A stretch of 30,740 nt of DNA from a virus (IMGVR_UViG_3300034082_001032), one strand, 5' to 3'. Numbered from the stretch's first letter, positions 1,939 through 29,600 are shown. A program made the numbers and translations. The notes: generated by a model not told the origin, from the letters alone.

Positions 1939-3408
1939 ATGAGTATTTTTTCGCTATCATGGTTCAAAAGACAGTCAGAGTTAGAAAACTTGGTTATTGA
2001 AGAACAACAGCTCAAGAATGAGATTTTAAAGAAAGAGTTAGGCGTTGATTTAGACAAGAAGCCTTATTTGAATGTTAAGTTAGTAAATGATTCACTAACA
2101 ATTGTTCTTAATGATGGATCTGTATTGAGTAAACCAAATGCTACAAAGGATGATTATTATGCGGCAGTGAATGCTAGGACAGAAGGTTCTTTGTACAGTA
2201 TTTGTGCTGATTCAACTGTAATGGAAGAGAAGAGAAAGCAAGAAGCAGAGATTGCTAGGATTAAAGCTGTTCAGCAAGGAATCAAAAGGCTAGAAGGACT
2301 AGCTGATTTTGAAATAGAAGGTAATTCTGTTAAGCTGGCTGGAACTGGTAGAACTATGCCACAGCTTCTTGTAGAGAAGTTCATTGAATTGGTAGACCTC
2401 TATGATGTAGATCCATACAATGATGTAACAGATGATCAAGAGTATCAAGCTCTTAAGAGATTCTTTATGTGGTGTTGCCTCAATCCTAGGGCAGAAGTAG
2501 CTAATGATTTGTATGACTTCCTGAATAAGAATAGTTTCAGGATTACAAAACAAGGTTTCTTTGTAGCTCTTAGGAATGTAGTTACATTACGTGGTAGCGT
2601 AGAGCTTGTACAATTTGTAAGCAATGCTTATAATAAAGTGAAAGCTGTATGGAAGAAGAGTCCTGATAAGTACACTGTGTTTCTTGAGAATTGTGAATAT
2701 AAATTGGTACATGAGGATGATCTTTATGAAACTGAACTAGTAGAATGTCAGGATTGTGATGGTCAAGGAATTGATTGGAGTTGTGAAAACGATGAAGATT
2801 CTGTGTGTGAGTTTTGTGATGGTGTAGGTCAATGCGACAACATGAATCAAATTAATCATGGAGAGAAAATTGGTAATCTCACAGAACTCTATCTAGATCT
2901 TCCTAATAGGCATGAGAATAGGTTTACAGATGCTCACACAAGGACATTTGACATTCGTGTAGGACAAGTGGTAAACATGCCTCCACAGGAGTGTAATTGG
3001 TCTACAGCAGATTGTGCACATGCAGGATTGCATTTCACAGCTGATGAGATTAATTATGTAGGATGTGGTGACCAGTCTGTTCTTATCCTTATCAATCCTA
3101 TGAAGGTTGTAGGTATTGGTGAAGCTAAGGGTAGGTGTTATGAATATCTTCCTATTATGACTGTATCTCGTGAAGAGTCTACAGAAATTCTACACGATCT
3201 TGATTTTGACACTCTTGAGCTTGATGAGGCTTTCGCAATTCACGAATTGGAAAACTTGGCTGAGAAGGTTAAAGGAGGATTTGTGTTAGAAGCTTCTAAG
3301 CATCAGTTTAACATTCCAGCAATGACACATGTTCAGATTGAGAACATCGTTGCTTCTTTGGAAGAGATGAAGTATTCCATCTCTAACAGGGTGAATATAA
3401 TCAAGTAA
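1939..3408 (+). CDS. rIIB: RIIB-like protein with an inserted DnaJ-type CxxCxGxG zinc finger
   Basis: Motifs LYDFLNKNSFRITKQGFFVALRNV, FTDAHTRTFDIRVGQVVNMP, CAHAGLHF and INPMKVV...GRCYEY match the RIIB pattern; paired with rIIA. Confidence 0.75.
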   Translation: MSIFSLSWFKRQSELENLVIEEQQLKNEILKKELGVDLDKKPYLNVKLVNDSLTIVLNDGSVLSKPNATKDDYYAAVNARTEGSLYSICADSTVMEEKRKQEAEIARIKAVQQGIKRLEGLADFEIEGNSVKLAGTGRTMPQLLVEKFIELVDLYDVDPYNDVTDDQEYQALKRFFMWCCLNPRAEVANDLYDFLNKNSFRITKQGFFVALRNVVTLRGSVELVQFVSNAYNKVKAVWKKSPDKYTVFLENCEYKLVHEDDLYETELVECQDCDGQGIDWSCENDEDSVCEFCDGVGQCDNMNQINHGEKIGNLTELYLDLPNRHENRFTDAHTRTFDIRVGQVVNMPPQECNWSTADCAHAGLHFTADEINYVGCGDQSVLILINPMKVVGIGEAKGRCYEYLPIMTVSREESTEILHDLDFDTLELDEAFAIHELENLAEKVKGGFVLEASKHQFNIPAMTHVQIENIVASLEEMKYSISNRVNIIK

Positions 3409-3472: not shown

Positions 3473-3874
3473 ATGAGGAAGAAAACAGTAAGAAAGCCCA
3501 GAGCAAATGCAGCACCTAAGACTAGGAACAATGGCACTATGACAGAGAGTGCGTTCTGGAGTTTTATAAGAAGTGGTCTTAGACAAAAGAGTAGATGGTG
3601 GAAGCCTATTACACAATGCAAACTAAATGCTAAGAGAACGTATAAAGGTCCTAATAAGCGTCAAAAGTTTGAATATCAATGTAATAGCTGTAAGAAATGG
3701 TTTGCTGAGAAGAACATTAACGTTGACCATGTGCTTCCTGCAGGAAGCTTGAATTGTGCTAATGACCTACCAGGGTTTGTTGAACGACTGTTTGTAGAAG
3801 TTGAAGGTTTACAAATATTATGTTCAATTTGTCATGACAAAAAGACAGCTAAAGAAAGAGAAAGTAGATTATAA
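3473..3874 (+). CDS. HNH-family endonuclease
   Basis: Contains CNSC...VDHVLP...LQILCSICHDKKT. ATG at 3473 is preferred over the tracked TTG at 3467. Confidence 0.8.
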   Translation: MRKKTVRKPRANAAPKTRNNGTMTESAFWSFIRSGLRQKSRWWKPITQCKLNAKRTYKGPNKRQKFEYQCNSCKKWFAEKNINVDHVLPAGSLNCANDLPGFVERLFVEVEGLQILCSICHDKKTAKERESRL

Positions 3875-3878
3875 AATA

Positions 3879-3910
3879 TTTGGTAGTTTACTCTTTTATT
3901 GTTATATTTG
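3879..3910 (+). promoter_or_regulatory. Bacteroidota-type promoter, probably giving a leaderless mRNA
   Basis: TTTG (3879-3882), 20-nt spacer, TATATTTG (3903-3910); ATG follows 4 nt later. Confidence 0.75.
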
Positions 3911-3914
3911 TCAT

Positions 3915-4775
3915 ATGAAAACATATTATTTATACCTTAAACAAAGTCCTATTGGTTTGAAATACTTAGGTATTACAACAAGGGATCCTTACAAGTATTT
4001 AGGAAGTGGTAAGTATTGGAGAAGACATTTAAAAGCTCACAATTTTTCATCTTCAGATATTAAAACAGAAATAGTTTTTTCTTCTATTATAGAAGAAGAA
4101 GTTAATTCTGTTGCTTTAGAATATTCAGAAAAATTTAATATAGTAGAATCTAAAGAGTTTGCTAATCTTATGCCTGAATCTGGTATGGATTGTACTTTAG
4201 GTAGACCTTGTTCAGAAGAAACTAAACGTAAAATTAGTGAATCTAATAAAGGAAAGCAGCTTTCTCAGGAGAGTATTGCTAAAATACTTAAAAATAGAAA
4301 ATCTAATAAAGGATTTAAACATTCTGAAGAAAGTAAAAGAAAAATGTCTGAATGGAGAAAAGGTAAGAAACTTTCTAAAGAGACTATTGAAAAAATGAGA
4401 GCTAAGACAAAAGGATCTAGATTAAAAGCTCACTTTAAAGAAGTTCATCAATATGATTTAGATGGTAATTACTTAAAGTCTTTTCCAAGTATTACAGATG
4501 CTATCAAAGAATATCCTTGTGATATTTACAATGCTGCTTCAGAGAGACATTCTACAGCTGGAGGATTTCAATGGAGATTGTATAAAAAAGATAACATTGA
4601 TGCTTTCTCAAGAGTTTGTAAAACAGTTTATCAATATTCTTTAGATAACACTTTAGTTAAAGAATGGAATGGTACAAAACAACCTTCAGAAGAATTAAGT
4701 ATTCATAGAGGAGCAATTAGAAATTGTTTATCTGGAATAGCTAAAACAGCTGGAGGCTATTTTTGGAAATATTAA
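3915..4775 (+). CDS. Free-standing GIY-YIG (Seg-like) homing endonuclease with NUMOD3-like repeats and two NUMOD1-like C-terminal modules
   Basis: N-terminal YYLY...KYLGIT...YLGSG; repeats SEETKRKISES / SEESKRKMSE; VHQYDLDG and VYQYSLD...KTAGGYFWKY. Start reassigned to the ATG at 3915, immediately after the promoter. Confidence 0.85.
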   Translation: MKTYYLYLKQSPIGLKYLGITTRDPYKYLGSGKYWRRHLKAHNFSSSDIKTEIVFSSIIEEEVNSVALEYSEKFNIVESKEFANLMPESGMDCTLGRPCSEETKRKISESNKGKQLSQESIAKILKNRKSNKGFKHSEESKRKMSEWRKGKKLSKETIEKMRAKTKGSRLKAHFKEVHQYDLDGNYLKSFPSITDAIKEYPCDIYNAASERHSTAGGFQWRLYKKDNIDAFSRVCKTVYQYSLDNTLVKEWNGTKQPSEELSIHRGAIRNCLSGIAKTAGGYFWKY

Positions 4776-7562: not shown

Positions 7563-9488
7563 ATGGATTTAGGATTGGACGCATTGAGTAAAATAACCGT
7601 GTTTAGTAAATATTCAAAATATTTGCCAGAACAAAAACGCAGAGAAACCTGGGATGAAATTGTAGACAGGTACCAGGGTATGATGATTAAGAAATATCCT
7701 AAATTAGAAAACGCTATTGTAAGTAGTGCTAAAATGATCAGGGATAAGAAGATCTTACCTTCTATGAGAGCTCTTCAATTTGCTGGTCCAGCTGCTGAAG
7801 TGAACAATTCAAGGATTTATAACTGTTGTTTTCTTCCAATAGATAGCTTACATAGCTTCAGTGAAACTATGTTCTTGCTATTAGGAGGAACAGGAGTTGG
7901 ATATTCTGTACAGAAGCATCATGTAGCACAACTTCCTGCAATCACTAAAACAGGCAAGAAAAGGCACTATTTGGTGGAAGATTCTATTATGGGATGGGCA
8001 GATGCTGTAAAAGTGCTGTTTAAAGCCTATTTAGAGGGAAAGTTTATGCCTGAGTTTGACTTTAGATCCATCCGTCAGAAGGGTGCTAGATTGATTACAG
8101 CTGGTGGTAAAGCTCCTGGTCCTGAACCTCTTAAGCTTTGTTTGTCTCACGTACAAGCTATTCTTGATAGGAAACAAGAAGGGGAACATCTCACACCTCT
8201 AGAGTGTCATGATATGCTTTGTCATATTGCTAACAGTGTACTTGCTGGTGGTATCCGCAGAAGTGCTATGATTGCTTTGTTTAGCCATGATGATGAGGAA
8301 ATGGTAACATGTAAGTATGGTGAGTGGTATATGCTAAATGAGCAGCGTGGTAGGGCTAATAACAGTGCTGTACTTGAAAGAGGAGTGGTAGGTGAAGAAG
8401 AATTCAATGCTCTATGGAAGAGGATTGAAGCAAGTGGATCTGGTGAACCAGGAATCTATTGGACAAACAATAAAGATTGGGGAACTAATCCATGTTGTGA
8501 GATTGCTCTCAGACCATATCAATTCTGTAACCTGTGTGAGGTGAATGTAAGCGATGTAACTAGTCAAGAGGATTTGAATGAGCGTGTTGCTACAGCAGCA
8601 TTCTTTGGAACTCTTCAGGCTGGGTTTACAGATTTTCATTATCTCCGTCCAATTTGGCAAAAGACAACACAAAAGGATGCTCTATTGGGAATTGGTATGA
8701 CAGGAATAGGATCTGGTGAGATTCTTAAGTATGATCTTGACATAGCAGCACATGTAGCCAAGGTGATGAATAGCATGATTAGTAATGTAATAGGAACTAA
8801 TGAGGCAGCTAGGATTACATGTATTAAGCCTAGTGGTACAACCAGTCTAGTGTTAGGTACAGCTAGTGGTATTCATGCATGGCATGCTCCTTATTACCTC
8901 AGGACTATGAGGTTTAATAAGAATGAAGACATGGCAGCTTACCTAATGGTAAATCATCCAGAGCTCTGTGAAGATGATGTCCTCAGACCTACAGACACAG
9001 TTTGTGTACGTATTCCTGTTAAAGCCCCAGAAGGATCTATATTCAGGACAGAAACAGCTATTGACACATTAGAACGTGTTAAAAGGTTCTCTCTAGAATG
9101 GATCAAACCAGGACACATTAATGGTGATAATACACATAACGTAAGTGCTACAATTTCTATTGATAGTAGTAGAAAATATTCAACTTGTATTACTCCTGAT
9201 GGATCACCTAATTACACTCCATCTGAGAAGGGAGAAGATAATGAATGGGAAATTGTAGGAAATTGGATGTTTAACAATCGTGAAGTGTATAATGGTTTGT
9301 CGGTATTGCCCTATTGGGGAGGTAGTTATTCTCAAGCACCTTTCGAGGACATTACTGAAGAAGAATACAACAAACGTATCACCTCATTGACATCTATTGA
9401 TTTAACTAAGGTGACTGAAATGGATGATTCAGTTGATTTTGGTGCTATACAGGCATGCGGAGGTGGTGCATGTGAAATCAACATCTAA
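7563..9488 (+). CDS. nrdJ: Class II (adenosylcobalamin-dependent) ribonucleotide reductase
   Basis: RIYNCCF, TNPCCEI (radical Cys), TCIKPSGTTS and C-terminal CGGGAC redox pair; no beta-subunit gene nearby. Confidence 0.9.
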   Translation: MDLGLDALSKITVFSKYSKYLPEQKRRETWDEIVDRYQGMMIKKYPKLENAIVSSAKMIRDKKILPSMRALQFAGPAAEVNNSRIYNCCFLPIDSLHSFSETMFLLLGGTGVGYSVQKHHVAQLPAITKTGKKRHYLVEDSIMGWADAVKVLFKAYLEGKFMPEFDFRSIRQKGARLITAGGKAPGPEPLKLCLSHVQAILDRKQEGEHLTPLECHDMLCHIANSVLAGGIRRSAMIALFSHDDEEMVTCKYGEWYMLNEQRGRANNSAVLERGVVGEEEFNALWKRIEASGSGEPGIYWTNNKDWGTNPCCEIALRPYQFCNLCEVNVSDVTSQEDLNERVATAAFFGTLQAGFTDFHYLRPIWQKTTQKDALLGIGMTGIGSGEILKYDLDIAAHVAKVMNSMISNVIGTNEAARITCIKPSGTTSLVLGTASGIHAWHAPYYLRTMRFNKNEDMAAYLMVNHPELCEDDVLRPTDTVCVRIPVKAPEGSIFRTETAIDTLERVKRFSLEWIKPGHINGDNTHNVSATISIDSSRKYSTCITPDGSPNYTPSEKGEDNEWEIVGNWMFNNREVYNGLSVLPYWGGSYSQAPFEDITEEEYNKRITSLTSIDLTKVTEMDDSVDFGAIQACGGGACEINI

Positions 9489-9772: not shown

Positions 9773-10801
9773 ATGGCAAAGACAAAAGAACCAACTGGAA
9801 ATAAGTTCCAGGATGCAATGGACAAGTTGAACAAGACTTATGGTGTAGGTACAATCCTCACATTAGACAGCAAGACAGAAGGTGATTATGATGTAATCAG
9901 CACAGGAAGTATTGGATTTGATTGGATTACACTTGGTACAGGTGGATTCGTTAAAGGTAGGATGTACGAACTTATGGGATGGGAGGGTTCAGGTAAGTCT
10001 ACAATATGTGGTCATGCTGTGGCAGAATGTCAGAAGAAAGGTGGTGTTGTATTGTATATAGATGGTGAGCATGCTGTAGATAAGAAGTATTTTGAAACTA
10101 TTGGTGTAGACACTACAAAGATGTTAATTGCTCAGCCTAGTTGCGGTGAAGAAGGTTTTAATATTGCTATGGAAATGATTAGCACTGGAACTATTGATCT
10201 TGTAATCATAGATAGTGACAGCTCATTGATTCCTAAAAAGATGTTGGATGGTGATGTAGGAGATTCTTCTATTGGTAGGAAAGCTTTGTTGAATAGCTCT
10301 GCCTATCCAAAAATGAAATCTGCTCTTGCTGAGCACAATGTTTGTGTAATTGTAATCAGTCAATACCGTGAGAAGATTGGTGTAATGTTTGGTAATCCCA
10401 CTACCACTCAAGGTGGACATGCGCTGAAATACTATTCAGACTGTCGCATTGAGGTGAGCAAAAGCTTGTTGAAAGAGGGTGACGTAAACTATGCAAATCT
10501 GACAAAGGTGAAGGCTACAAAGAACAAAATGTCTCCTCCCTACAAAGTTCATCAATTTGAGATTGTTTATGGTCTGGGAATTGATAAGGAGAAAGAGATT
10601 ATGGAACTTGGTAGTGAGTTTGAGATTTTCAAGAAGTGGGGTAAAACCATTACATTTGGAGAGACTAAGTATGATCTTGAGCAATTTAGTGCACTATTGT
10701 TAGATAACGAAGAGTTCTATAACGACATTAAAGAAAAGATTAAATCTAAAATTAAACAAACAGAAATAAAATCTGAAGAACATGTTAAAAGTGAAATTTA
10801 A
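9773..10801 (+). CDS. recA: RecA/UvsX recombinase
   Basis: Walker A GWEGSGKST, IDGEHAVD, VIIDS, SQYREKIGVMFGNPTTTQGGHALKYY. Confidence 0.95.
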   Translation: MAKTKEPTGNKFQDAMDKLNKTYGVGTILTLDSKTEGDYDVISTGSIGFDWITLGTGGFVKGRMYELMGWEGSGKSTICGHAVAECQKKGGVVLYIDGEHAVDKKYFETIGVDTTKMLIAQPSCGEEGFNIAMEMISTGTIDLVIIDSDSSLIPKKMLDGDVGDSSIGRKALLNSSAYPKMKSALAEHNVCVIVISQYREKIGVMFGNPTTTQGGHALKYYSDCRIEVSKSLLKEGDVNYANLTKVKATKNKMSPPYKVHQFEIVYGLGIDKEKEIMELGSEFEIFKKWGKTITFGETKYDLEQFSALLLDNEEFYNDIKEKIKSKIKQTEIKSEEHVKSEI

Positions 10802-17211: not shown

Positions 17212-17398
17212 TTCTTCCGAATGTTATATTGTTCTTTACAATAATGTCTTTGTGTCTAAGTTGCCACATTTCACCTGTATCATCAATGATTACAGTGTAT
17301 ATTGTGTCTGTCTCATGACCGTAGTCTATTACATAAAATAGCACACCATCTCCTTTTGGAGTCGAAACCTCTACTCTATTAATAAATTCATGAATCAC
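17198..17398 (-). CDS. Hypothetical protein
   Basis: 66 aa, beta-rich, overlapping both neighbours. Confidence 0.6.
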   Translation of the reverse strand: MIHEFINRVEVSTPKGDGVLFYVIDYGHETDTIYTVIIDDTGEMWQLRHKDIIVKNNITFGRNGNS

Positions 17399-18062
17399 TT
17401 AAGTTATTATTATAATCTTTTAAATAAATTATAGGAGTATTATTTTTTCTATTTCCAGAAAGTTTATCAACTAGTTTTTTGTAATTTGTATGTTTTTGAC
17501 ACAAAGTAATAGAGTCATATATAATATTTGTGCTTGTGTCAATTACTTTTATTGCTTTATAACTAGTTTTTCCGTATTGAGGATGTTTTTCTCCCTTTAA
17601 AGAGTTACTTATTTTTTCTCTAGTTTTTTCAGAAACAGGTCTACCTTTTAAAGAATTTATTATTTTCTCCTTGTGTTCATTTGTAAATTTCTTACCAAAC
17701 CAATAGGCTTTTCCATCTTTTTGTCTTTGAGATAATTTTAACTTATATTCTTCTGATCTAACTACTCCTACCATACCCTCACCGCCATTAGTCATATTAG
17801 CAAGGGTTCCTGTACCTAAATTTATTCTACCATATAAAGTGATAAATTCTTTTTCTTTTTGACAAGCTTCTTCCCAAGTAATATTATCAAATAGAATTTC
17901 TACTTCATAAGATGTCTTATTTATAATATCTATCCAAATTTTATTTCTTTTTTCTATAGATTTATAATAAGCCCTTTCGAATTCATAACCATCACCTTTA
18001 CCAATACCTATATAGAATGGTTCATTTTTATCAACTCTTATATGTCTATAAACATATGCCAT
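17388..18062 (-). CDS. Free-standing GIY-YIG homing endonuclease with NUMOD3-like repeats
   Basis: AYVYRH...FYIGIG...RAY; LANMTNGGEG; SEEYKLKLS and SEKTREKISNS repeats. Confidence 0.85.
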   Translation of the reverse strand: MAYVYRHIRVDKNEPFYIGIGKGDGYEFERAYYKSIEKRNKIWIDIINKTSYEVEILFDNITWEEACQKEKEFITLYGRINLGTGTLANMTNGGEGMVGVVRSEEYKLKLSQRQKDGKAYWFGKKFTNEHKEKIINSLKGRPVSEKTREKISNSLKGEKHPQYGKTSYKAIKVIDTSTNIIYDSITLCQKHTNYKKLVDKLSGNRKNNTPIIYLKDYNNNLSDS

Positions 18063-20573: not shown

Positions 20574-21593
20574 TTAATAATTTAAATTGTATTTATTTTT
20601 AATATCAATAAGTTGTGAAACGTAATGATGATTGCAAAGTGTTTTACTTTTCTCATCATTATACACTTTATATAAGTGTGGATCTTCAAAAGGACTACTT
20701 CCTGTATGATAGTTACCTTTATAGAACGTAGGAATATCACCTTGTGTATTACCTACTATCCCTGCATTATGAAGAATCCCCATTCTATCTAGTTTAGATA
20801 TGTTGTCTGAGCTCCAAGCAAATTCCATTTCAGGAACCACCTTTGTCTCTTGATCTCTTAACCAGAGATTCCAGAGAACAGCCCACATATCAGCACACCA
20901 TGATTGAAATCCTTTTGCCTCACTTTCAAAAAACTGTTTGTTTATATTACTGAGATAGGTTCTAATCAACAAACAATCTGTCATCACCTTATCCCAGAAA
21001 CTCCCACCTATATTCTTTATGAGGTATTGTGCTCCTCCAGAATGTAGATTGTTTTTCTCACAGATCTCTCTAGTGATACCAATCAAACTTGTGATTTCTG
21101 AAAGGATGTCTATTTTCTTATACTCTTCAAGCATTTCAGGCTTGACATCTTTTATCTTACTATCAAAATATGAGGCGTTTATGTAGCTGTTTGTATCTGA
21201 CAAATAACATACATCATCATGTATATATTGCTCAATATCAAATCGTTCTGTAAAAACTATGTCTGAATCACAATAGAACACAGCTTTGTTAACCATGTCT
21301 GGATGCTCGTTGAAATATTTCATCAAGACATAGGGACGAATAATGGGAATATATATTCCCAACAGCTTACTGGCGTTATCTACATCCTTATAGAAAACAA
21401 ATTCAGACTCTGGATAGAGTGCCATAACTTGTTCCCATTTAGGATTTCTCTCTCTGAAGTTTGGAATAAAGATGAGAACAGTTGCTTTGTCTGAGTGTCC
21501 TATCTTTCTTAAACTCTCTAACCAGAGATGCACTTGCCATGTATAATATGTATCATCAGGCTGACAAGTTATAAACTTTAATTCTTTTCTCAT
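20574..21593 (-). CDS. GT-A glycosyltransferase resembling GT95/GT96 protein O-glycosyltransferases
   Basis: YYTWQ...LESL, RPYVLMKYF, YCDSD (DxD), GGAQYL, WCADMWA and LHNAG. The motif order resembles plant HPAT/SGT1 as recalled, not as aligned. Confidence 0.55.
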   Translation of the reverse strand: MRKELKFITCQPDDTYYTWQVHLWLESLRKIGHSDKATVLIFIPNFRERNPKWEQVMALYPESEFVFYKDVDNASKLLGIYIPIIRPYVLMKYFNEHPDMVNKAVFYCDSDIVFTERFDIEQYIHDDVCYLSDTNSYINASYFDSKIKDVKPEMLEEYKKIDILSEITSLIGITREICEKNNLHSGGAQYLIKNIGGSFWDKVMTDCLLIRTYLSNINKQFFESEAKGFQSWCADMWAVLWNLWLRDQETKVVPEMEFAWSSDNISKLDRMGILHNAGIVGNTQGDIPTFYKGNYHTGSSPFEDPHLYKVYNDEKSKTLCNHHYVSQLIDIKNKYNLNY

Positions 21594-22195
21594 TATATAG
21601 TTACTATTGGTTTACGCCTTTCATCTCTTCTCAGAATATCAGTTACATTGAACTTCCAACTTTTTCCAGCTATAATTGCTCTAACTATATAAATACTAAT
21701 ATTCATTATCTCAGCAACTTCTTTTGTAGATTTCCCTGAGTTATACAGTTCCTTTAGAGCAGTAACTTTCTCGTCTGTAAGAGTTGCTCTACCGTTACCT
21801 TCACCAGATCTATTAGGTTGTAGTCCTAATTTATAGGCATGTAGTTGATTTTCTGATTGAGTTACCCATTGAAGATTAGTCACTCTATTATCAGTTTTTA
21901 TACCATTGACGTGATTAATTTGAGTACAATGTTCAGGTTTTGTTAGAAAGGCACTAGCTACAAGTTTGTGAACTAATCTCGTATGAGATCCATTTTTACG
22001 AAGTCTAACCTCAGGATACCCTTTTTTATTAAGAACCTGTTTTAACTCTTTTCCTCTAATTAAACGAAGTCCATGTTTACTGTTTCTAAGTCTATCTACT
22101 CCTCTAACTCTACCAAAACTACTCACCTGATATCCATCAAATTCAGGAACCTCTCTCCATTCTTCAGAAGTACAGATGAACTTAAGATCCTTCAT
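21593..22195 (-). CDS. NUMOD4-HNH homing endonuclease with a C-terminal HTH
   Basis: EEWREVP...YQVSSFGRVR; VHKLVASAFL; INHVNGIKTDNRVTNLQWVT..EN..HA. Confidence 0.9.
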   Translation of the reverse strand: MKDLKFICTSEEWREVPEFDGYQVSSFGRVRGVDRLRNSKHGLRLIRGKELKQVLNKKGYPEVRLRKNGSHTRLVHKLVASAFLTKPEHCTQINHVNGIKTDNRVTNLQWVTQSENQLHAYKLGLQPNRSGEGNGRATLTDEKVTALKELYNSGKSTKEVAEIMNISIYIVRAIIAGKSWKFNVTDILRRDERRKPIVTI

Positions 22196-22376: not shown

Positions 22377-23720
22377 TTAATATATTTCTCTCCACTGAAC
22401 AGAAGCGCCTGCTGTTGTAGATGTAGTACCAATATTAGTCACTGCAATTATATAAATTTCTGAATCTGTAGAGTCGTAGTTTTGTGAAATGTAATTCTGT
22501 CTTGCGTCTGATGCATTTGCATCAGCATTCACAGCTCCTCTATTCCCAACAGCAGCAGAAACATATCCTGAAGCAAATGTAAGACCATCTGTATATGCTG
22601 TAGCATTTACGCTATACTCCACCCCAGACCTTGCATCTACAGGAGCCCAAGTTTCTCCAGTTAAATAGGATGAATCTGGAAGCTTTATCACTTTGTACAC
22701 AAGAGGTTCCTTTACAGAATAAAGACTAAATTCCTGTAAACGAACAAAAAGTCTATTTGGATAGCTTTGAAATGTATTGGTTAACCTAATTGCTATTAAT
22801 GGAAGTGTATCTCCTGCAGCAACTGTTCTTAATGTTGAATTTAATGTTGACCAGTCTTGACCAGCATCAGCATCACCACCCTCACTTATTACTGATGAGC
22901 ATATTTGGTTCATTGAACCGCCTGTTGTAGTTCCTGTATTAAATATCTCACATCTTAAAGGTAAGTTAGGACTAGACATATAAGGAACATCAATTGTGTT
23001 TGATGTTCTAAATTCATGGGCTATTATAAATTGTCCATTAACTAAAAATCCACACCTCACTCTACCAAGACCAAGCCATGTGAAATCTGTATAAAAGAAC
23101 TGTGTTTTAGTTATATCTAGATTATATCCTGAAGGTCCTGTACCGTCACATTTATCAGTGTTCCATGAAGACTGCGCAACCTTAGAAGCATCACTAGGTG
23201 TTCCACTAGTGTTTGTTCTTACACAAAAACTTAAAACACCAGCACCATTTTGTTCAAAGTAAATACCATTATCATCATCAAAATAACCTGTTCTTTTTGT
23301 AACATTAACAACAGCTGCTTTAAAACAAATAGTTGAAAATATCAATTGGCTCTTTCCAGGAATATAGTTATGATAGACTTTTGTCTGATGAATAGCACTA
23401 CTTGCAGGATTTGACGTTGTAGATAATAAAGCACTTGACTGATCTGGTTGAAACGTAACAGTTCCCCCATTTGCTAACTTGTCAAGAAAATTTATATTTA
23501 GTCCGTACACATGTTTATAGTCTCCAATAGTAAATGGTAAAGATGCTCTAAGTCTAGCAAAAGCATCTAACCCTGTACTGTCAGCATAGGTTATAGCACT
23601 ATCAACTGTAATATTGTTTAGTGTAGACGTTATACCAGAAAGCCTGTTAACTTCTTTTAACAGTTCCCAAAGAAGATTACTCTCTTGGCTCCAACCTATT
23701 TGTTTTGATAAAATAGCCAT
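22377..23720 (-). CDS. Putative virion structural protein (beta-rich, S/T/G/A-rich)
   Basis: 447 aa; DAFARLR..PFT, YIPGKSQLI, RTGYFDDDNGIYFEQ and WLGLGRVRCGF resemble recurrent phage structural proteins. Confidence 0.5.
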   Translation of the reverse strand: MAILSKQIGWSQESNLLWELLKEVNRLSGITSTLNNITVDSAITYADSTGLDAFARLRASLPFTIGDYKHVYGLNINFLDKLANGGTVTFQPDQSSALLSTTSNPASSAIHQTKVYHNYIPGKSQLIFSTICFKAAVVNVTKRTGYFDDDNGIYFEQNGAGVLSFCVRTNTSGTPSDASKVAQSSWNTDKCDGTGPSGYNLDITKTQFFYTDFTWLGLGRVRCGFLVNGQFIIAHEFRTSNTIDVPYMSSPNLPLRCEIFNTGTTTGGSMNQICSSVISEGGDADAGQDWSTLNSTLRTVAAGDTLPLIAIRLTNTFQSYPNRLFVRLQEFSLYSVKEPLVYKVIKLPDSSYLTGETWAPVDARSGVEYSVNATAYTDGLTFASGYVSAAVGNRGAVNADANASDARQNYISQNYDSTDSEIYIIAVTNIGTTSTTAGASVQWREIY

Positions 23721-23727
23721 AACTGCA

Positions 23728-23757
23728 CAAATTTATGTAATAAGTTTTGATTATCAA
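23728..23757 (-). promoter_or_regulatory. Bacteroidota-type promoter for the structural / poly-Thr block
   Basis: On the - strand TTG, 19-nt spacer, TAAATTTG; ATG follows 7 nt later. Confidence 0.7.
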
Positions 23758-23813
23758 TGACCTATGTTAAATTTGCTTAACTAAGTCAATTAAATCCACT
23801 CTAATCAAATTGA

Positions 23814-23942
23814 TTATTTACCTTGTCCTACATATTTCTTAACTGGTTTGTCTTTTGGACCTCTAGTTTTAGAAGCTTTTCCATTTTTACGTTTGCCAAA
23901 GTTGATTTTCTTGGCTTCTCCTGATGATTTTCCTTTTGCCAT
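23814..23942 (-). CDS. 42-aa Lys/Gly-rich basic protein; not in the ORF track
   Basis: Read by hand: MAKGKSSGEAKKINFGKRKNGKASKTRGPKDKPVKKYVGQGK. Confidence 0.7.
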   Translation of the reverse strand: MAKGKSSGEAKKINFGKRKNGKASKTRGPKDKPVKKYVGQGK

Positions 23943-23952
23943 CTTATTAAAT

Positions 23953-24552
23953 TTATGCTAGTGCTGCGTTGAATGTTTTAAACTTACTTATTCTGTCATC
24001 AAGACCGTGAGTACCACCATTCACTTTCTTAGTGATTGCTGTAACATCTGCCACTGTAGCTCCTTTATCAGCCAAAGCATTTAAACTTCTACTGTTCCAG
24101 AACCAGGCTGCTGATAACAATGGGTATTTGGTAGCCACCAACTCAGGAGCACTGAGGATGTTATCATCTACCACTTTATCAAATGCTGAATAATTATCTT
24201 TACCTGTCAGTTGAATATATCCTCTACCTCTGAACTTGAATCCATCTCCACTAGCTTCATCTCCATTACCCATCCTAGAAGCATACACTTTATTAGCTAT
24301 CTTCTCAGGCTTTCTTTCAGAAGCCTTAGCTGATGCATCGTCTTTAAAGTATTTCCCAAATATAGAACGCAGTCCTGCTGCACCATAATTAAGGTTTTCA
24401 CTAACAGCTTTGAAGTTGCCACTCTCATGAGCACATTGTGCCAAGAAGTGAGCCAGCCTAAGTGGTGTATTTATTTGAAACTTCTCAATTACAGCAGGGA
24501 TTTGATCTGCTACAGTGGCTGGAATGATTGTGTTGAGTTTTGTCAGATTCAT
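23953..24552 (-). CDS. GH19-family endolysin (chitinase-like lysozyme)
   Basis: AHFLAQCAHESG...ENLNY...DGFKFRGRGYIQLTG...AAWFW...KVNGG. Confidence 0.9.
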   Translation of the reverse strand: MNLTKLNTIIPATVADQIPAVIEKFQINTPLRLAHFLAQCAHESGNFKAVSENLNYGAAGLRSIFGKYFKDDASAKASERKPEKIANKVYASRMGNGDEASGDGFKFRGRGYIQLTGKDNYSAFDKVVDDNILSAPELVATKYPLLSAAWFWNSRSLNALADKGATVADVTAITKKVNGGTHGLDDRISKFKTFNAALA

Positions 24553-24555
24553 ATT

Positions 24556-25308
24556 TTATTTTTTTTGTTTACCATCGTCTTGAGTGGCATATTTGATACC
24601 CATAATTGTTCCCACTATTGAAAATGCGTTGGTCAATAGTACGCTAAACATATTTGACCAGGTTGACCCTATTATCTGTGTATCTCTGCCAGTAACCATA
24701 GCCATCCAATACATAATAGTTGTTACAACACCAACACCCATAATAACTACCAAAGCAACTACAACAATTGTCTTGATTAACTCGGATTGTGACTTCTTCA
24801 TCAGTATATCCAAGTCATTCAAAGCAGCGTTCTTCTCTATCTCAATTGCGTTTTTTAGTTGTTGTGACTTATCCAGCTCAAGTTGCAAGTCTTTAGAAAG
24901 AGCATCAATCTTGTTCTTATAATTGATTGTTTCTGTTATGTCAGTCGCAATCTTCATCACCTTTGTGATGACATTGTTTTCATCAAAGATAGGATTGTAG
25001 GTTGCTTGTAAAAATATAGGTGCACCATCCATCTTCTTCCTTTCAAATTCACCTTCAAAAAACTTGCCGCTTCTTAACGTTTCCCAAAACTTTTTATACT
25101 CATCAGATTTGGAATACTCATAACTTACAAAAATACTATGATGCTTTCCAATTAGTTGCTTATGGTCTTCCTCTTGATATCCCATTGCCAAGAGAAAGAT
25201 TGAGTTCATCCCCAAGATGTACCCTTCCAAGTCAAAGTAGATGATAGCATTGGAACGATTGATTGCTTCAAGCCTACTTAAGAGCTCTTCCTTTGAGAGA
25301 TTCTTCAT
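24556..25308 (-). CDS. PAS/PAC sensor domain, coiled coil and two C-terminal transmembrane helices
   Basis: AINRSNAIIYFDLEG...N..FL..MGY....LIGKHHSIF...FWETLRSG..FEGEF.R..DG..I.LQATYNPI.D......KVMKIATDIT, a BdlA/MCP-type PAS; two hydrophobic segments at the C-terminus. Confidence 0.85.
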   Translation of the reverse strand: MKNLSKEELLSRLEAINRSNAIIYFDLEGYILGMNSIFLLAMGYQEEDHKQLIGKHHSIFVSYEYSKSDEYKKFWETLRSGKFFEGEFERKKMDGAPIFLQATYNPIFDENNVITKVMKIATDITETINYKNKIDALSKDLQLELDKSQQLKNAIEIEKNAALNDLDILMKKSQSELIKTIVVVALVVIMGVGVVTTIMYWMAMVTGRDTQIIGSTWSNMFSVLLTNAFSIVGTIMGIKYATQDDGKQKK

Positions 25309-25541
25309 TCTTTTTCTTCAGGTTTTTTGAAGATTGTCTGGGCAGCTGAAATACCAAGAGCACCAATTGCTACAGCTGTAACACACTCAACAAGAATGGT
25401 TGAAGGCGCAATATGTTCTTCGCTGAAGCTATTCCAAAGTAGGGTGATGCATAGGAAAAGTGTTGATATTAAGCCAGCAAATCTCTTGCTGCTAAGTTTT
25501 CCATCTTCAGCCAATAGGCTCCAAATAAAGTTCTTTATCAT
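25305..25541 (-). CDS. Holin-like two-TM membrane protein
   Basis: 78 aa, SSKR followed by two hydrophobic helices and a charged C-terminus; located in the lysis cluster. Confidence 0.6.
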   Translation of the reverse strand: MIKNFIWSLLAEDGKLSSKRFAGLISTLFLCITLLWNSFSEEHIAPSTILVECVTAVAIGALGISAAQTIFKKPEEKE

Positions 25542-25542
25542 A

Positions 25543-26151
25543 TTAGAATAATTTTATATACATATTAAGTCCGTATACAGTCCTTTGGTTATTACCAATT
25601 CCTACAGATGCTCCATATAACCTATCACGTTTGGTTTTAACCATCACTCCAACTGAAGGACTTTGGATTCCTTGTCCTTGTAAATAATCCACTCTACCAC
25701 CTAGGTATAGTTGTGCTTTAGGTTTCTCTTTTACAGTGATTGTATTGGTTACAGAAGGAAATTGTAAGTCTGCAGACATAGCTCTACCTACAAGTTTATT
25801 ATATTGCACTGTATCATCTATATATATCTGTCCAAACTTACCCACCTTCATAGTGTCTTTGAACGTGTTTTTTGCATAAAATTGCGAGAGTATCGAATCA
25901 ATCTGTGCAGAGTCAAGCACAGGCACAGGTAGATAAATAGTAGTGTCATGATAGATGTCCTCTCCTTTCTTGTATTTGGTTTCTTTCACTTTAATGTATT
26001 GAGTATCAATCACTTGTTTGATCACCTCATACTTTTTTCCATCGATTTTAATTGTCTCACCTGGAACAACAGGCTTGCCACATTCTGTTCTATAGAGCAT
26101 GATGATGGCAAATAGAATTACAACTGAGTTTATAATATAACTAGTCTTCAT
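25543..26151 (-). CDS. Putative spanin-like protein
   Basis: N-terminal TM segment, DT-rich extended middle region, C-terminal amphipathic beta-strands ending YIKLF; located in the lysis cluster. Confidence 0.45.
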   Translation of the reverse strand: MKTSYIINSVVILFAIIMLYRTECGKPVVPGETIKIDGKKYEVIKQVIDTQYIKVKETKYKKGEDIYHDTTIYLPVPVLDSAQIDSILSQFYAKNTFKDTMKVGKFGQIYIDDTVQYNKLVGRAMSADLQFPSVTNTITVKEKPKAQLYLGGRVDYLQGQGIQSPSVGVMVKTKRDRLYGASVGIGNNQRTVYGLNMYIKLF

Positions 26152-26413
26152 CTATTTCTTTATTTTTTGGAAGAACACCTTCAAATCTAGCCAATATCAT
26201 CATTGGATTTTCATCAGGGTGATTTGTAACTGTCTTATATACATTCCTCTCTAGATTATCTATACGAGTTTTGTCAATGTTTGACTGAGCCATCAATGCC
26301 TTTACATCAGCTTTGATCTCATTCACGTCGTTCCAGATCATGATGGAAACTAATGATACAAGTCCTGGGAATATCCAAGATTTTATCACTGCAACTGTAG
26401 GATTGTCTTTCAT
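26141..26413 (-). CDS. Single-TM coiled-coil membrane protein (lysis-associated?)
   Basis: WIFPGLVSLVSIMIW followed by a heptad region; first gene of the operon. Confidence 0.55.
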   Translation of the reverse strand: MKDNPTVAVIKSWIFPGLVSLVSIMIWNDVNEIKADVKALMAQSNIDKTRIDNLERNVYKTVTNHPDENPMMILARFEGVLPKNKEIDED

Positions 26414-26426
26414 GTTCTTACATAAT

Positions 26427-26471
26427 GTAAAAATAGCACATACCTATCCTGTAGATAGGGAAATGCTATTT
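26427..26471 (-). terminator. Terminator-like hairpin in the lysis operon leader
   Basis: AAATAGCA / TGCTATTT outer stem and CCTATC / GATAGG inner stem; pairs better on the - strand; followed by a U-run. Confidence 0.5.
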
Positions 26472-26496
26472 AGTTATGGTGAAGGGATAAATTTAT

Positions 26497-26540
26497 AAAA
26501 AGTAAAACACTCCTACTAACAACTATAGAGGAATGTTTTT
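26497..26540 (-). terminator. Terminator-like hairpin in the lysis operon leader
   Basis: On the - strand AAAACATTCCT...AGGAGTGTTTT (U-G wobble only in this orientation), followed by ACTTTTT. Confidence 0.55.
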
Positions 26541-26592
26541 TGTATGCTTTTTTGCATAATATAGCGTAAAGTGCACATTACACTTATTGAAG

Positions 26593-26624
26593 CAAATCTA
26601 TGTAATTAATTTGAAACTACCAAA
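26593..26624 (-). promoter_or_regulatory. Bacteroidota-type promoter facing the lysis operon
   Basis: On the - strand TTTG, 20-nt spacer, TAGATTTG. Confidence 0.7.
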
Positions 26625-26641
26625 TATTTTTTCTACCTTTG
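26610..26641 (+). promoter_or_regulatory. Bacteroidota-type promoter for the multidomain glycosyltransferase
   Basis: TTTG (26610-26613), 20-nt spacer, TACCTTTG (26634-26641); ATG at 26650. Confidence 0.75.
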
Positions 26642-26649
26642 AACCACTT

Positions 26650-29600
26650 ATGCCAAACAGTTATTCTTATTTCAAATCTGACATAAAACAGTGGTTTATA
26701 GACAATATTCCTACAGGAACACGCATTCTAGATGTAGGTCCTGGACAGGGAACATATTCAGACTTGCTAAGGAATTTAGGATATAGAATGGATGCTGTAG
26801 AAATATGGGCTCCTTATATAGACCAGTTTAACCTGAGGTCTAAATATGACAATGTTTATGTTGGAGACATCCTAACATTTGATGTAATGTCCTATGACTT
26901 TATCATTCTAGGAGATGTTCTTGAACATGTTCACACAGAGAAAGCTACAGATCTACTTACACACTTTAACCTAATAGATAAAAGATTTCTTGTGGCAGTT
27001 CCCTATATGATGCCTCAGGATGGTGAGGAGTATGGGAACGAGTATGAAACTCATCACCAAGCAGACCTTACACCAGATGTAATGTTAGAACGCTATCCAG
27101 GATTGATAAAACTGTATGACAATCAGTGGTATGGGTACTATGTCAATGAGGACAGAAGATGGGAAAAAGCTTATGTACTCTATGCTACAGAGAGTTATAA
27201 AGAAACTGTATTAGCCTGTGTAGCTTCTATCAGGACATTTAGTAGTTTCCCAGTGATGGTATACATGCTCAACTCAGATATAGATATAGATGGAGCTATC
27301 ACTTTCCGTTGGGATTGTAAAACAAAAGACCTCCCTCAGCAGAAATATATTGATAGGGTTAACATAGATGTTTACAATATGCTCATCCAGCGTCCATGCA
27401 TTGTTAAAGATGCACTGAAGTATGCTAAGGTGGTGGCATATGTAGATGCTGATAGTGTAGCTACCAGGTATGTAGACAGAATATTTGACTATTTCCCATC
27501 CAAGAACAACTATCCATATTTCACAGAAGGGATATACGAATGGATGATTATTAATGGTAGAGGTGGTGTAGAAAGTAGAGATGACATGTCTACAAGTCTT
27601 GAACATCCAGCATGTGAGCTGTTTGGTGTAAACCAATATATAAGAGATAAATACAGACAGACGGGCTATTTTGTGGCTGGACAGTGGTGTATAGAGTTCT
27701 TGGATGAGTGGTGGTGGATGTGTAATCATCCTAAAGTGTTACAAAATCCACAATATTATGCTCCCTACCACGAAGAAACAATAGCTAACATTCTCTTATG
27801 GGCTCAGAAAGGGCTCAAAGGGCTTCCTTACATCTACATGAACGCATCTCTAGATAGAGTGAACAATGTAGAGTTTGCTGGATATAAAAAACAGATTGGT
27901 CATTTTGTATCTACACCAGCCTCAGTGAATGAGTTGTTATTCTATCATGGAGAGAAGGATGCTGCCACTATGTATAAGATGTTAGAACGCCAGAAGAATT
28001 ACTTAAGAATACTATTCATAGCACCACATCTATCCACTGGTGGGATGCCTGCCTTTCTCTTGAGAAGAATACAGGCTTTGCAGGCTCACACAAATGTAGA
28101 AATCTATGTTGTGGAATATTCCAATCACAGCGATCACTTTGTTGTACAAAAAGATCAGATAAAAAAGTTAGTGCGTCACTTCTGGACACTGGGAGAGGAT
28201 AAGATGGAGGTGATGGACATCATCAAGAATAATAATATTGATGTTGTACATATAGAAGAAATGGTGGAAGATGGCTGGAACAATTGGCCAGAATCCCTGA
28301 GAGAAGCTTTGTATGCTCCAGATAGGACATGGAGGATGATTGAGACATGTCACAACATTATATTCAAGCCAGACATTGAGAAGCGCTTCCACCCAGACAG
28401 CTACATGTTCTGTACACCACATCATCTAAAGACATTTGCAAACATGCCTTCTCCTAAGTATGTAGTGGAGTTTCCTATAGAGAAGAAGGAGGCCACTAAA
28501 TTTATGTTTGGAGAGGGAATGCATGTGCTCAATGTAGGACTATGGACACCTGGCAAGAATCAAGGAGAAGCTGTAGAACTAGCTAGACAAATACCAGATG
28601 TACATTTCCACTTTGTAGGTAACCAAGCTGGTAACTTCCAGCACTACTGGGAGCCCCTGATGAAAGACCTTCCTGATAATGTACATGTATGGGGAGAGCG
28701 TAATGATGTAGATGAGTTTATGGCAGGATCTGATTTGTTCCTGTTCAACAGTACATTTGAATGCAATCCATTAGTGATTAGAGAAGCCATAGGGCATGGA
28801 CTACCGATCATTGCTAGGAATCTTCCTCAGTATGGAGACATGTTTACGAAATATATTACTGATTTAGATCCATCTAAGCTGAAAGAACAGGTGTATGAGC
28901 AGCTTAAGAACCTAAAGACTTATAACATTCCTGAGAACCAGGAGCTTGAATTTGCTCTTACACATCTTACCATCTATCAGAAAGTTGTACAAAATGTTGT
29001 ACAATCTAGCGAACATGTGACAATTGATCACAACTTTGTATTAGAACCATTCCTTGAAATCAAGGGAAGATCTAAGAGCAAGTTTAGAGTGGAATATTAC
29101 GATGAAGCAGGTGTGTGTCATTACAGAAACACAATAGGTGTCCAGAACTGGATTAAGCTAAATAGGAGGTGGTTCACCAAGTGGACGATTAAGATGTGGA
29201 AAGATGATGTTCCTTATTATGAATACACTCTAGACTATACAAACCAACGTGTTTACATAGCATTTGATAGTCAATCCTTAGGAGACACAATAGCTTGGAT
29301 GCCATATGTGCTAGAGTTTAAGAAGAAACACAACTGCCATGTAATAGTGAGCACGTTTAAGAACTTCCTGTTCAAGGATGTCTATCCAGAGCTTGAGTTT
29401 ATTGAGCCTGGTCAGAGGGCTGAAAGTATATTTGGTATGTATAGCATAGGTTGGTTCTACAATCCAGATAAAGAACCAGCTTTGTGCAACACTGTAAACC
29501 TCCAAGAGGCAGCCACTAACATCTTAGGTCTTGATTATCAAGAACTTAAACCAAGAATTGCGTTCACTCCTCGTAACAATTTATATGGTAAATATGTTAC

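Follow-up and report, generated by a model that had tools for sequence, protein, structure and literature searches.

What is a sensory domain doing in the lysis cassette of a phage? In a 30,740-nucleotide stretch of viral DNA (IMGVR_UViG_3300034082_001032; hereafter, the window), a gene for a PAS domain joined to a membrane domain with two transmembrane (TM) helices has a small holin-like gene on one side and an endolysin gene on the other. From this arrangement, an earlier note had proposed that the timing of lysis is coupled to a cytoplasmic environmental signal through a sensor-holin or a sensor-antiholin. ORF calling places five genes head to tail on the minus strand (p90, p202, p78, the PAS gene, and the gene for a GH19 endolysin), with a sixth, short gene (p42) after them (Table 1). 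By their coordinates, p90 and p202 overlap by 11 nucleotides; the remaining junctions, read directly from the sequence, show a single nucleotide between the stop codon of p202 and the ATG of p78, an ATGA shared by the p78 stop and the PAS gene start, and three nucleotides between the TAA of the PAS gene and the ATG of the endolysin gene. At the last two of these junctions, which the earlier note had read in the same way, the PAS gene is translationally coupled to the small holin-like gene and to the endolysin gene.

Table 1. Features of the minus-strand gene run and of the PAS protein
Feature	Coordinates	Strand	Description	Basis
p90	26141..26413	-	First of the five-gene run; N-terminal hydrophobic helix, then a coiled-coil-like region	ORF call
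p202	25543..26151	-	N-terminal hydrophobic helix, beta-rich remainder, C terminus KLF	ORF call
p78	25305..25541	-	78 aa; two TM helices, charged C-terminal tail	ORF call, family alignment
PAS protein	24556..25308	-	250 aa; PAS domain, one long helix, two-helix membrane hairpin	
PAS protein, residues 1-127	24928..25308	-	N-cap helix and PAS core; predicted cytoplasmic	Pfam, AF2 model
PAS protein, residues 128-176	24781..24927	-	Helical coiled-coil linker with a conserved juxtamembrane motif at its end	AF2 model, alignment
PAS protein, residues 177-250 and stop codon	24556..24780	-	TM1, short outer loop, TM2, basic tail	Alignments, HMMER
GH19 endolysin	23953..24552	-	199 aa	phrog_181, Pfam Glyco_hydro_19
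p42	23814..23942	-	42 aa, very basic; after the endolysin gene	ORF call

The endolysin was assigned by family (phrog_181, E value of 8.5e-71; Pfam Glyco_hydro_19, E value of 7e-7), and its N terminus has no hydrophobic stretch resembling a signal anchor. Neither p90 nor p202 matches any family in Pfam or PHROGs; the former may have an accessory role in lysis, as a spanin-like protein or otherwise, and the latter is a candidate outer-membrane-acting lysis protein. Of the genes in the cassette, p78 looks most like a holin, judged from its sequence and its predicted N-in/C-in topology. A scan of positions 23600 to 26800, made without Bacteroidota-type promoters, returned sigma-70 and terminator signals no stronger than the shuffled expectation.

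The N-terminal part of the protein is a PAS domain. Residues 20 to 127 match PAS_9 (PF13426; E value of 1.6e-10, 41.6 bits against a gathering threshold of 27) and PAS_3 (PF08447; E value of 5.1e-10, 39.9 bits against a gathering threshold of 25.6), and an AlphaFold2 (AF2) model built with 42 homologues as input (pLDDT of 77) has the corresponding fold: an N-cap helix at residues 6 to 18 and a PAS core at residues 21 to 123, with strands at 21 to 25, 30 to 34, 84 to 91, 97 to 108, and 114 to 123 and flanking helices. Foldseek matched this model to PAS/LOV structures at a probability of 1.00. The remainder of the model is a continuous helix (residues 125 to 206), a turn (207 to 209), and a second helix (210 to 244), and, from the hydropathy of close homologues, the two TM segments span approximately 177 to 195 and 220 to 238. 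At E values of up to 0.1, the Pfam scan found no kinase, MCP, or other output domain, and the sole PHROGs match was a weak one between the C-terminal half and phrog_1544, a family of unknown function (E value of 0.007). The earlier description of the protein, as a PAS domain followed by a coiled coil and two TM helices with no kinase or MCP output domain, therefore holds in each respect.

Because the AF2 model and the distribution of charges (KKSQSELIK ahead of TM1, KYATQDDGKQKK behind TM2) agree, both ends of the hairpin are predicted to be cytoplasmic, which fits a protein composed of a cytoplasmic PAS domain, a helical linker, and a hairpin of N-in/C-in topology. TM2 (TWSNMFSVLLTNAFSIVGTIMGIKYA) is near-invariant and belongs to a conserved output module comprising residues 177 to 250, and the linker helix is closed by a juxtamembrane motif (A..DLD...KK.Q.EL) in which, over an alignment of the PAS-fused and kinase-relay forms described below, L166 is invariant and D165, K171, K172, Q174, and E176 are each conserved in at least 90% of sequences. 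Values of dN/dS range from 0.06 to 0.08 over the three parts of the protein (0.06 for the PAS part), figures that are rough because dS is near saturation; by this measure, all three parts are under purifying selection.

The nearest relatives of solved structure, whether by fold or by sequence, are flavin-type PAS modules (short LOV proteins, the YF1 LOV-kinase, NifL, MmoS, and Aer; PDB accession numbers 7r5n, 8a3u, 2gj3, 3ewk, and 8dik). Foldseek ranks short LOV proteins, LOV-kinase chimeras, NifL, MmoS, and Aer nearest, and the closest solved domains by sequence are the FAD-binding ones of MmoS (3ewk; E value of 3.5e-7) and Aer (8dik; E value of 1.4e-3), at approximately 24% identity at best. 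Like the PAS protein, such modules consist of an N-cap helix, a PAS core, and a C-terminal helix that runs on as a coiled-coil signaling helix, but the output of the PAS protein is a TM hairpin in place of a kinase, an MCP, or the control of NifA, and the LOV adduct cysteine and most of the positions that contact FAD in Aer are replaced. The FAD contacts of Aer, R57, H58, D60, W70, N85, and Y93, correspond in the HMMER alignment to 8dik to V, S, E, W, E, and I, such that the tryptophan alone is kept and the Aer-type set of an FAD-binding PAS domain is missing. Similarly, the photoactive cysteine of LOV domains (FMN-binding and sensitive to blue light) lies in a segment of the type GRNCRFLQ; the equivalent segment here is GKHHSIFV, with His57 at the position of the cysteine. 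His57 occurs in every homologue of the PAS-family alignment and in every PAS-bearing row shown of the hairpin alignment, and the GKHHS block and the tryptophan of the FW motif are invariant in the family alignments. These comparisons lend no support to the analogy with heme-binding BdlA drawn in the earlier note. From the nearest PAS relatives, our guess is that the signal is an intracellular energy or redox cue.

If the protein acts in lysis, its homologues should be linked to lysis genes, and in IMG/VR most of them are. We called genes around each of 86 homologous loci and clustered the neighbors, the commonest of which is the p78 family (59 of 86 loci, directly upstream in 36). Next come an endolysin of approximately 153 aa of the Peptidase_M15_3 type (phrog_894; 35 loci, directly downstream in 23), GH19 (27 loci, directly downstream in 16), and GH24 phage lysozyme (10 loci, directly downstream in 5), and homologues of p202 and p42 lie close to the PAS gene in 21 and 16 of the 86 loci, respectively. 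We then applied family HMMs to the 48 PAS-type IMG/VR loci that are fully flanked (2.5 kb or more of sequence to either side). Within 2.5 kb, 42 of them carry an endolysin gene from these three families and 41 carry a p78-like gene; by our own estimate, a gene picked at random from a phage genome of 100 to 200 kb would fall within this distance of the endolysin gene only a few percent of the time. The three endolysin families are unrelated to one another, and a neighbor that stays in place as one endolysin family gives way to another is typically a component of the lysis cassette; it is because the adjacency persists across all three families that we read the PAS gene as such a component.

This linkage has exceptions. 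Six of the 48 PAS-type loci have no endolysin gene within 2.5 kb, and a minority of homologues are surrounded by replication genes instead of a lysis cassette: at two loci (L075 and L078), a two-PAS gene sits among genes for a UvsX-like protein, an exonuclease, DnaB, and RNR. Together with the near-invariance of TM2 beside different holins and endolysins, which could indicate a conserved host target or strict self-assembly, such loci raise the alternative that the protein is a sensor-controlled membrane effector outside the lysis pathway (e.g., acting as a controlled leak for ions, in host takeover by modulating some conserved membrane machine of the host, or in superinfection exclusion) and that its adjacency to endolysins reflects late-gene co-expression only. 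We consider this a serious rival, although less probable than a role in lysis: co-expression does not readily account for an adjacency that outlasts changes of endolysin family, and the translational coupling on both sides of the PAS gene in the window is hard to explain without a common pathway. Distance from an endolysin is in any case weak evidence against a role in lysis, because these phages carry T4-type replication genes and, in the window, rIIA- and rIIB-like genes, and T4 scatters its lysis genes.

A second alternative concerns the division of labor between the PAS protein and p78. The hairpin of the PAS protein could itself form the holes that free the soluble GH19 endolysin, with the PAS domain gating its oligomerization and p78 serving as an antiholin or second holin. 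In its predicted features (two TM helices, N-in/C-in topology, and a charged, basic C-terminal tail, from hydropathy, model, and charges), the hairpin resembles a class II holin; its Asn/Ser/Thr/Gly-rich TM2 is conserved as an oligomerizing helix would be; its gene stands immediately upstream of that for the endolysin, both in the window and at the 44 of 86 loci made up of the M15, GH19, and GH24 cases counted above (23, 16, and 5, respectively); and seven fully flanked loci have no p78-like gene. Nevertheless, we judge this alternative to be improbable. At 250 to 371 aa, the proteins are far above the size of known holins (roughly 60 to 150 aa), their conservation is unusually high for holins, the PAS protein matched no established family of holins or antiholins in the Pfam and PHROGs searches, other small TM proteins are found nearby in all but two of the seven loci lacking p78, and an ungated holin would be lethal in the replication-gene modules in which some homologues reside.

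No holin family was matched by p78 in Pfam or PHROGs; a Pfam scan of 18 members of its family likewise returned no holin family and only weak TssN-like matches, and an ESM Atlas feature search led to nothing beyond unnamed viral clusters and, weakly, DUF2644. The p78 family and the hairpin module family are not homologous (hhalign probability of 1.2%), and a complex prediction for p78 with residues 125 to 250 of the PAS protein, run without controls, scored 0.00 and carries no weight either way. In the family alignment, p78-like neighbors are highly divergent (12 to 51% identity), and, TM2 of the PAS protein being near-invariant, this hints at self-assembly or at a conserved host target; it is not what a dedicated pairing of TM helices between the PAS protein and p78 would predict. 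In the holin-antiholin pairs of lambda (S105/S107, class I) and phage 21 (S68/S71, class II pinholin), the antiholin is made from an alternative start within the holin gene and is not known to respond to anything other than membrane potential. The PAS protein shares with these pairs a two-TM N-in/C-in arrangement, a charged C-terminal tail, a polar, small-residue face of TM2, and a position beside the endolysin, but it is encoded by a separate gene, is three to five times longer, carries a sensor of the ligand type, and, as the hhalign result implies, does not have sequence in common with its small neighbor as an antiholin of the lambda or phage 21 type has with its holin.

To what extent, then, is the hairpin tied to the PAS domain? 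A HMMER scan with residues 128 to 250 recovers 100 clusters (at 50% identity) that share the juxtamembrane motif, TM1, and a near-invariant TM2 (TWSN....LLTN.FSI.GTIMG.KYA) and that differ in their N termini, which consist of one PAS domain, two PAS domains, a different PAS domain (P0132), a GAF domain (P0131), or a coiled coil only; the most frequent N terminus is a non-sensor head of approximately 60 aa with the motif LEGNILK. The gene for the GAF form lies in a cassette with a 78-aa gene, GH19, and a glucosaminidase, and in that cassette a 449-aa gene occupies the place of the structural gene of the window. As compared across these sequences, the conserved unit of the family is the C-terminal hairpin, which is phage-specific and independent of the PAS domain. 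One member with only the coiled coil occurs in a non-lysis context.

The LEGNILK-head form, with at least 564 relatives in IMG/VR, represents a split version of the same system. Among its 42 fully flanked loci, a response regulator consisting only of a receiver domain lies within 2.5 kb in 41, and a membrane-anchored histidine kinase (PAS_3/HATPase_c) lies within 2.5 kb in 40; over 80 surveyed loci, the receiver gene is directly upstream of the LEGNILK-head gene in 59. The PAS domain of this sister-family kinase is 44% identical to that of the window (E value of 2e-27), far closer than any solved PAS domain. Moreover, the locus with a kinase, receiver, and hairpin (L142) and one of those with a PAS-PAS-hairpin gene (L075) are syntenic: the two forms swap at one site, on either side of which translated matches between the flanks are 76 to 99% identical. 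Because the forms exchange at a single site and the PAS domains are this similar, it would appear that input and output, being of the same PAS type and the same hairpin, are joined either directly or via a phosphorelay. By gene content, the family includes both one-component forms, with PAS or GAF fused to the hairpin, and two-component forms, with kinase, receiver, and hairpin genes in a run.

On comparative grounds, this exchange between fused and split versions argues strongly for control of the hairpin by the PAS signal. The kinase-relay loci also bear on a role outside lysis, to which they lend some support, in that about two-thirds have no endolysin gene within 2.5 kb; the coil-only member, in its non-lysis context, lends support of the same kind. 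Among 16 long contigs with the relay form, approximately half have an endolysin gene within 4.5 kb, in some cases divergent from or abutting the operon. With respect to the coupling of lysis to a cytoplasmic signal as originally proposed, the connection to lysis is upheld by the persistence of the neighborhood across endolysin families, and the path from signal to membrane is upheld by the domain swaps and the split version; a minority of homologues lie within replication modules, and overall the proposal is partly supported.

The family is large. A word-indexed search with the PAS protein gave 4,778 matches, the best 120 of which are 69 to 77% identical and mostly 371 aa in length with two PAS domains. 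Since its relatives in IMG/VR (at least 269) include both one-PAS (approximately 250 aa) and two-PAS forms, the one-PAS form is a common natural variant, not a local deletion. We had considered that the 250-aa form arose from the 371-aa form through an in-register deletion that ran from one PAS repeat into the other and dropped this idea after constructing a domain tree: the first third of the PAS domain in the window resembles the first repeat, PAS-A (86% versus 39%), and the remainder is intermediate, and single-PAS forms fall outside the PAS-A clade, with only one inside the PAS-B clade.

The family also appears to be restricted to phages, because a search of 185,579 bacterial and archaeal species (one genome each) returned only eight matches, all on MAG contigs assigned to unrelated phyla. 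In 50,697 records of cultured phages, tblastn searches with the whole protein, residues 128 to 250, and a member of the sister family (P0141) produced matches to the PAS domain only or none, with the proviso that the low-complexity filter may partly mask such TM-rich queries; an ESM Atlas feature search with the hairpin part gave no usable match. Nor did full-text searches of the literature turn up any membrane protein of a lysis cassette, whether holin, antiholin, or other, that is coupled to a PAS domain, a GAF domain, or a kinase, and the architecture is, as the earlier note had suspected, new with respect to the lysis cassettes described in these sources.

This distribution weighs against a further alternative, namely, that the phage took over part of an Aer/BdlA-like receptor of its host, for chemotaxis or energy taxis, and uses it to imitate or block the signaling of the host. 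Many homologues are labeled "methyl-accepting chemotaxis protein" by JGI, and the PAS domain of Aer is a detectable relative, but we regard such an origin and role as highly improbable: the protein has no MCP signaling or HAMP domain, the family is essentially absent from the bacterial and archaeal genomes searched, the nearest relative of its PAS domain belongs to the phages' own kinase family, and the hairpin is a phage-specific module that does not depend on the PAS domain. As a family designation, the label itself is wrong because the MCP domain is absent (no PF00015 or HAMP in the Pfam scan), the protein ending 10 residues past TM2.

The explanation that we favor, at somewhat less than an even chance, is that the PAS protein is a signal-gated regulator of holin triggering that modulates the timing of holin-dependent lysis. 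We prefer a regulator to a holin proper because a smaller and more holin-like gene is almost always present, because holins are much smaller than the PAS protein and much less well conserved, and because some homologues occur amid early replication genes. As a regulator, it would be a one-piece phage transducer, with a cytoplasmic PAS domain as its input and a two-helix membrane hairpin as its output. By analogy with short LOV proteins and LOV-kinases, the PAS domain would probably form a parallel dimer in which a change of ligand or redox state makes the long linker helix shift in register or pack differently; movement of this helix would be passed to TM1 and TM2, flipping the hairpin between inert and active states. 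In the active state, the polar Asn/Ser/Thr/Gly-rich TM2 might restrain or promote the formation of holes by the small holin or, alternatively, might depolarize the membrane and so trigger the holin. The mode of action could therefore be antiholin-like or trigger-like, with both a delay and an advance of lysis being possible.

To our knowledge, holin timing in the systems studied so far is a matter of holin accumulation and membrane potential, and the action of an external cue is known chiefly from lysis inhibition in T4. This phage detects superinfection on the periplasmic side, by means of the soluble domains of RI and T, and the signal is relayed to the holin, T, by way of the antiholins RI and RIII (PMC11413866, PMC8385771). 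The concept is similar, in that a signal tunes the timing of lysis through a dedicated domain on, or binding to, the membrane hole-former, and this system is the closest to ours in function; the rII-like genes of the window are a T4-like trait as well. The PAS protein differs in its cytoplasmic PAS, GAF, or kinase-relay input and its two-TM hairpin, has no sequence kinship with the T4 proteins, and has a putative role in lysis only.

The closest phage PAS sensor is VqmA-Phage of vibriophage VP882, a soluble PAS-HTH transcription factor that controls the switch from lysogeny to lysis (PMC8284805). It, too, ties the killing of the host to a small-molecule signal, but the output of the PAS protein is a membrane hairpin, its gene is in the lysis cassette, and its phage appears to be lytic. 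In F1-cluster mycobacteriophages, two holin-like proteins, LysF1a and LysF1b, are both required for the correct timing of lysis, and their cassette resembles that of the window in combining two different membrane proteins, one of which is a small two-TM protein of N-in/C-in topology (PMC13056207). They differ in having no sensor domain, in the Gram-positive-like nature of the host, and in the absence of sequence kinship.

Signal-modulated control of lysis is thus already known in kind, and there is a substantial chance that the present system is a wholly new class. More broadly, we tentatively suggest, while placing this below an even chance, that lake and marine phages use a PAS/GAF or kinase-receiver pathway with a nontranscriptional hairpin output on the lysis machinery to set the time of lysis by the state of the host. 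If this is true, lysis time would follow the energy, redox, light, or metabolite state of the host instead of a fixed holin clock; many environmental phages would time lysis by host physiology; and the system would constitute both a new class of lysis control and, in the link from receiver to membrane hairpin, an undescribed type of two-component output. It would also bear on burst size, on how the viral shunt is modeled for lakes and oceans, and on the engineering of lysis switches that obey a signal. The system is directly testable, consisting of three small genes and an endolysin gene.

The host of the phage is indicated by two features alone, namely, the nearest DNA relatives of the endolysin gene, which are phages of Flavobacterium, Cellulophaga, and Olleya, and a GC content of 35%. 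A metatranscriptome search returned one contig of 282 nucleotides on the endolysin gene (approximately 96% identity) and none on the PAS gene, and it is uninformative as to the expression of the latter. At the DNA level, copies of a 2.7-kb stretch with hardly any changes are present in at least 23 metagenome runs from lake water.

The hairpin, the conserved C-terminal two-transmembrane module of the PAS protein, also occurs in one product of a widespread phage operon (L087:2-1673; L089-L168 among the related IMG/VR loci). The operon codes for a membrane-anchored PAS_3 histidine kinase, for a response regulator made up of a receiver alone, and for a hairpin protein of ~200 aa. The hairpin protein carries a conserved LEGNILK head, followed by a coiled coil and the same two-transmembrane hairpin as in the PAS protein, and the receiver may dock on this head. 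A pair of syntenic phage contigs differ at a single site, which is occupied by the kinase-receiver-hairpin operon in one (L142:2346-5661) and by a PAS-PAS-hairpin gene in the other (L075:4900-6102), with translated matches that are 76-99% identical in the flanks on both sides. The genes surrounding this exchange site are replication genes, not lysis genes. In a further fusion, a 360-aa protein (L086:4001-5083), a GAF domain is joined to the hairpin, and downstream of its gene come a gene of 78 aa and three small ones, as well as genes for a GH19 enzyme and a glucosaminidase.

Other proteins adjoin the sensor genes at related loci. A relative of 211 kb encodes a 231-aa protein (L001:7574-8269) whose gene stands between those for the PAS-PAS protein and the GH19 endolysin; it scores 27.2 bits for the four-helix-bundle sensory module of MCP type (4HB_MCP_1; cut-off 27) and would be a second sensor-like protein of a lysis neighborhood. 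Directly upstream of the PAS gene at L028 (2208-2528) and at five similar loci is a gene for a 106-aa coiled-coil protein with weak similarity to XhlA and to phrog_937 ("hemolysin"); XhlA is part of the lysis cassette of Bacillus PBSX.

Within the window cassette, the 202-aa protein has alternating beta-like segments and then a C-terminal Phe, and is a candidate for the outer-membrane step of lysis; its homologues are encoded close to the PAS gene in 21 of the 86 surveyed loci. The 42-aa ORF matched no family, and its homologues (40-45 aa) adjoin the cassette at 16 of these 86 loci.

Accessory, T4-type, and homing-endonuclease-like genes of the window
Feature	Position	Strand	Basis or remark
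RIIA-like gene	46-1887	+	phrog_612, E 1e-17
RIIB-like gene	1939-3408	+	phrog_609, E 5e-16
Homing-endonuclease family match	3801-4775	+	phrog_314
Ribonucleotide reductase	7563-9488		
UvsX-like recombinase	9773-10801		
Homing-endonuclease family match	17388-18062	-	phrog_314
Candidate HNH-like ORF	21593-22195	-	likeness by eye
42-aa ORF	23814-23942	-	14 Lys/Arg; directly 3' of endolysin
202-aa protein	25543-26151	-	N-terminal hydrophobic helix

Together, the RIIA-like, RIIB-like, UvsX-like, and ribonucleotide reductase genes give this lake-water phage a gene set of T4 type; the rII genes of T4 have historically been linked to lysis phenotypes. The candidate HNH-like ORF is situated between virion genes and glycosyltransferase genes.
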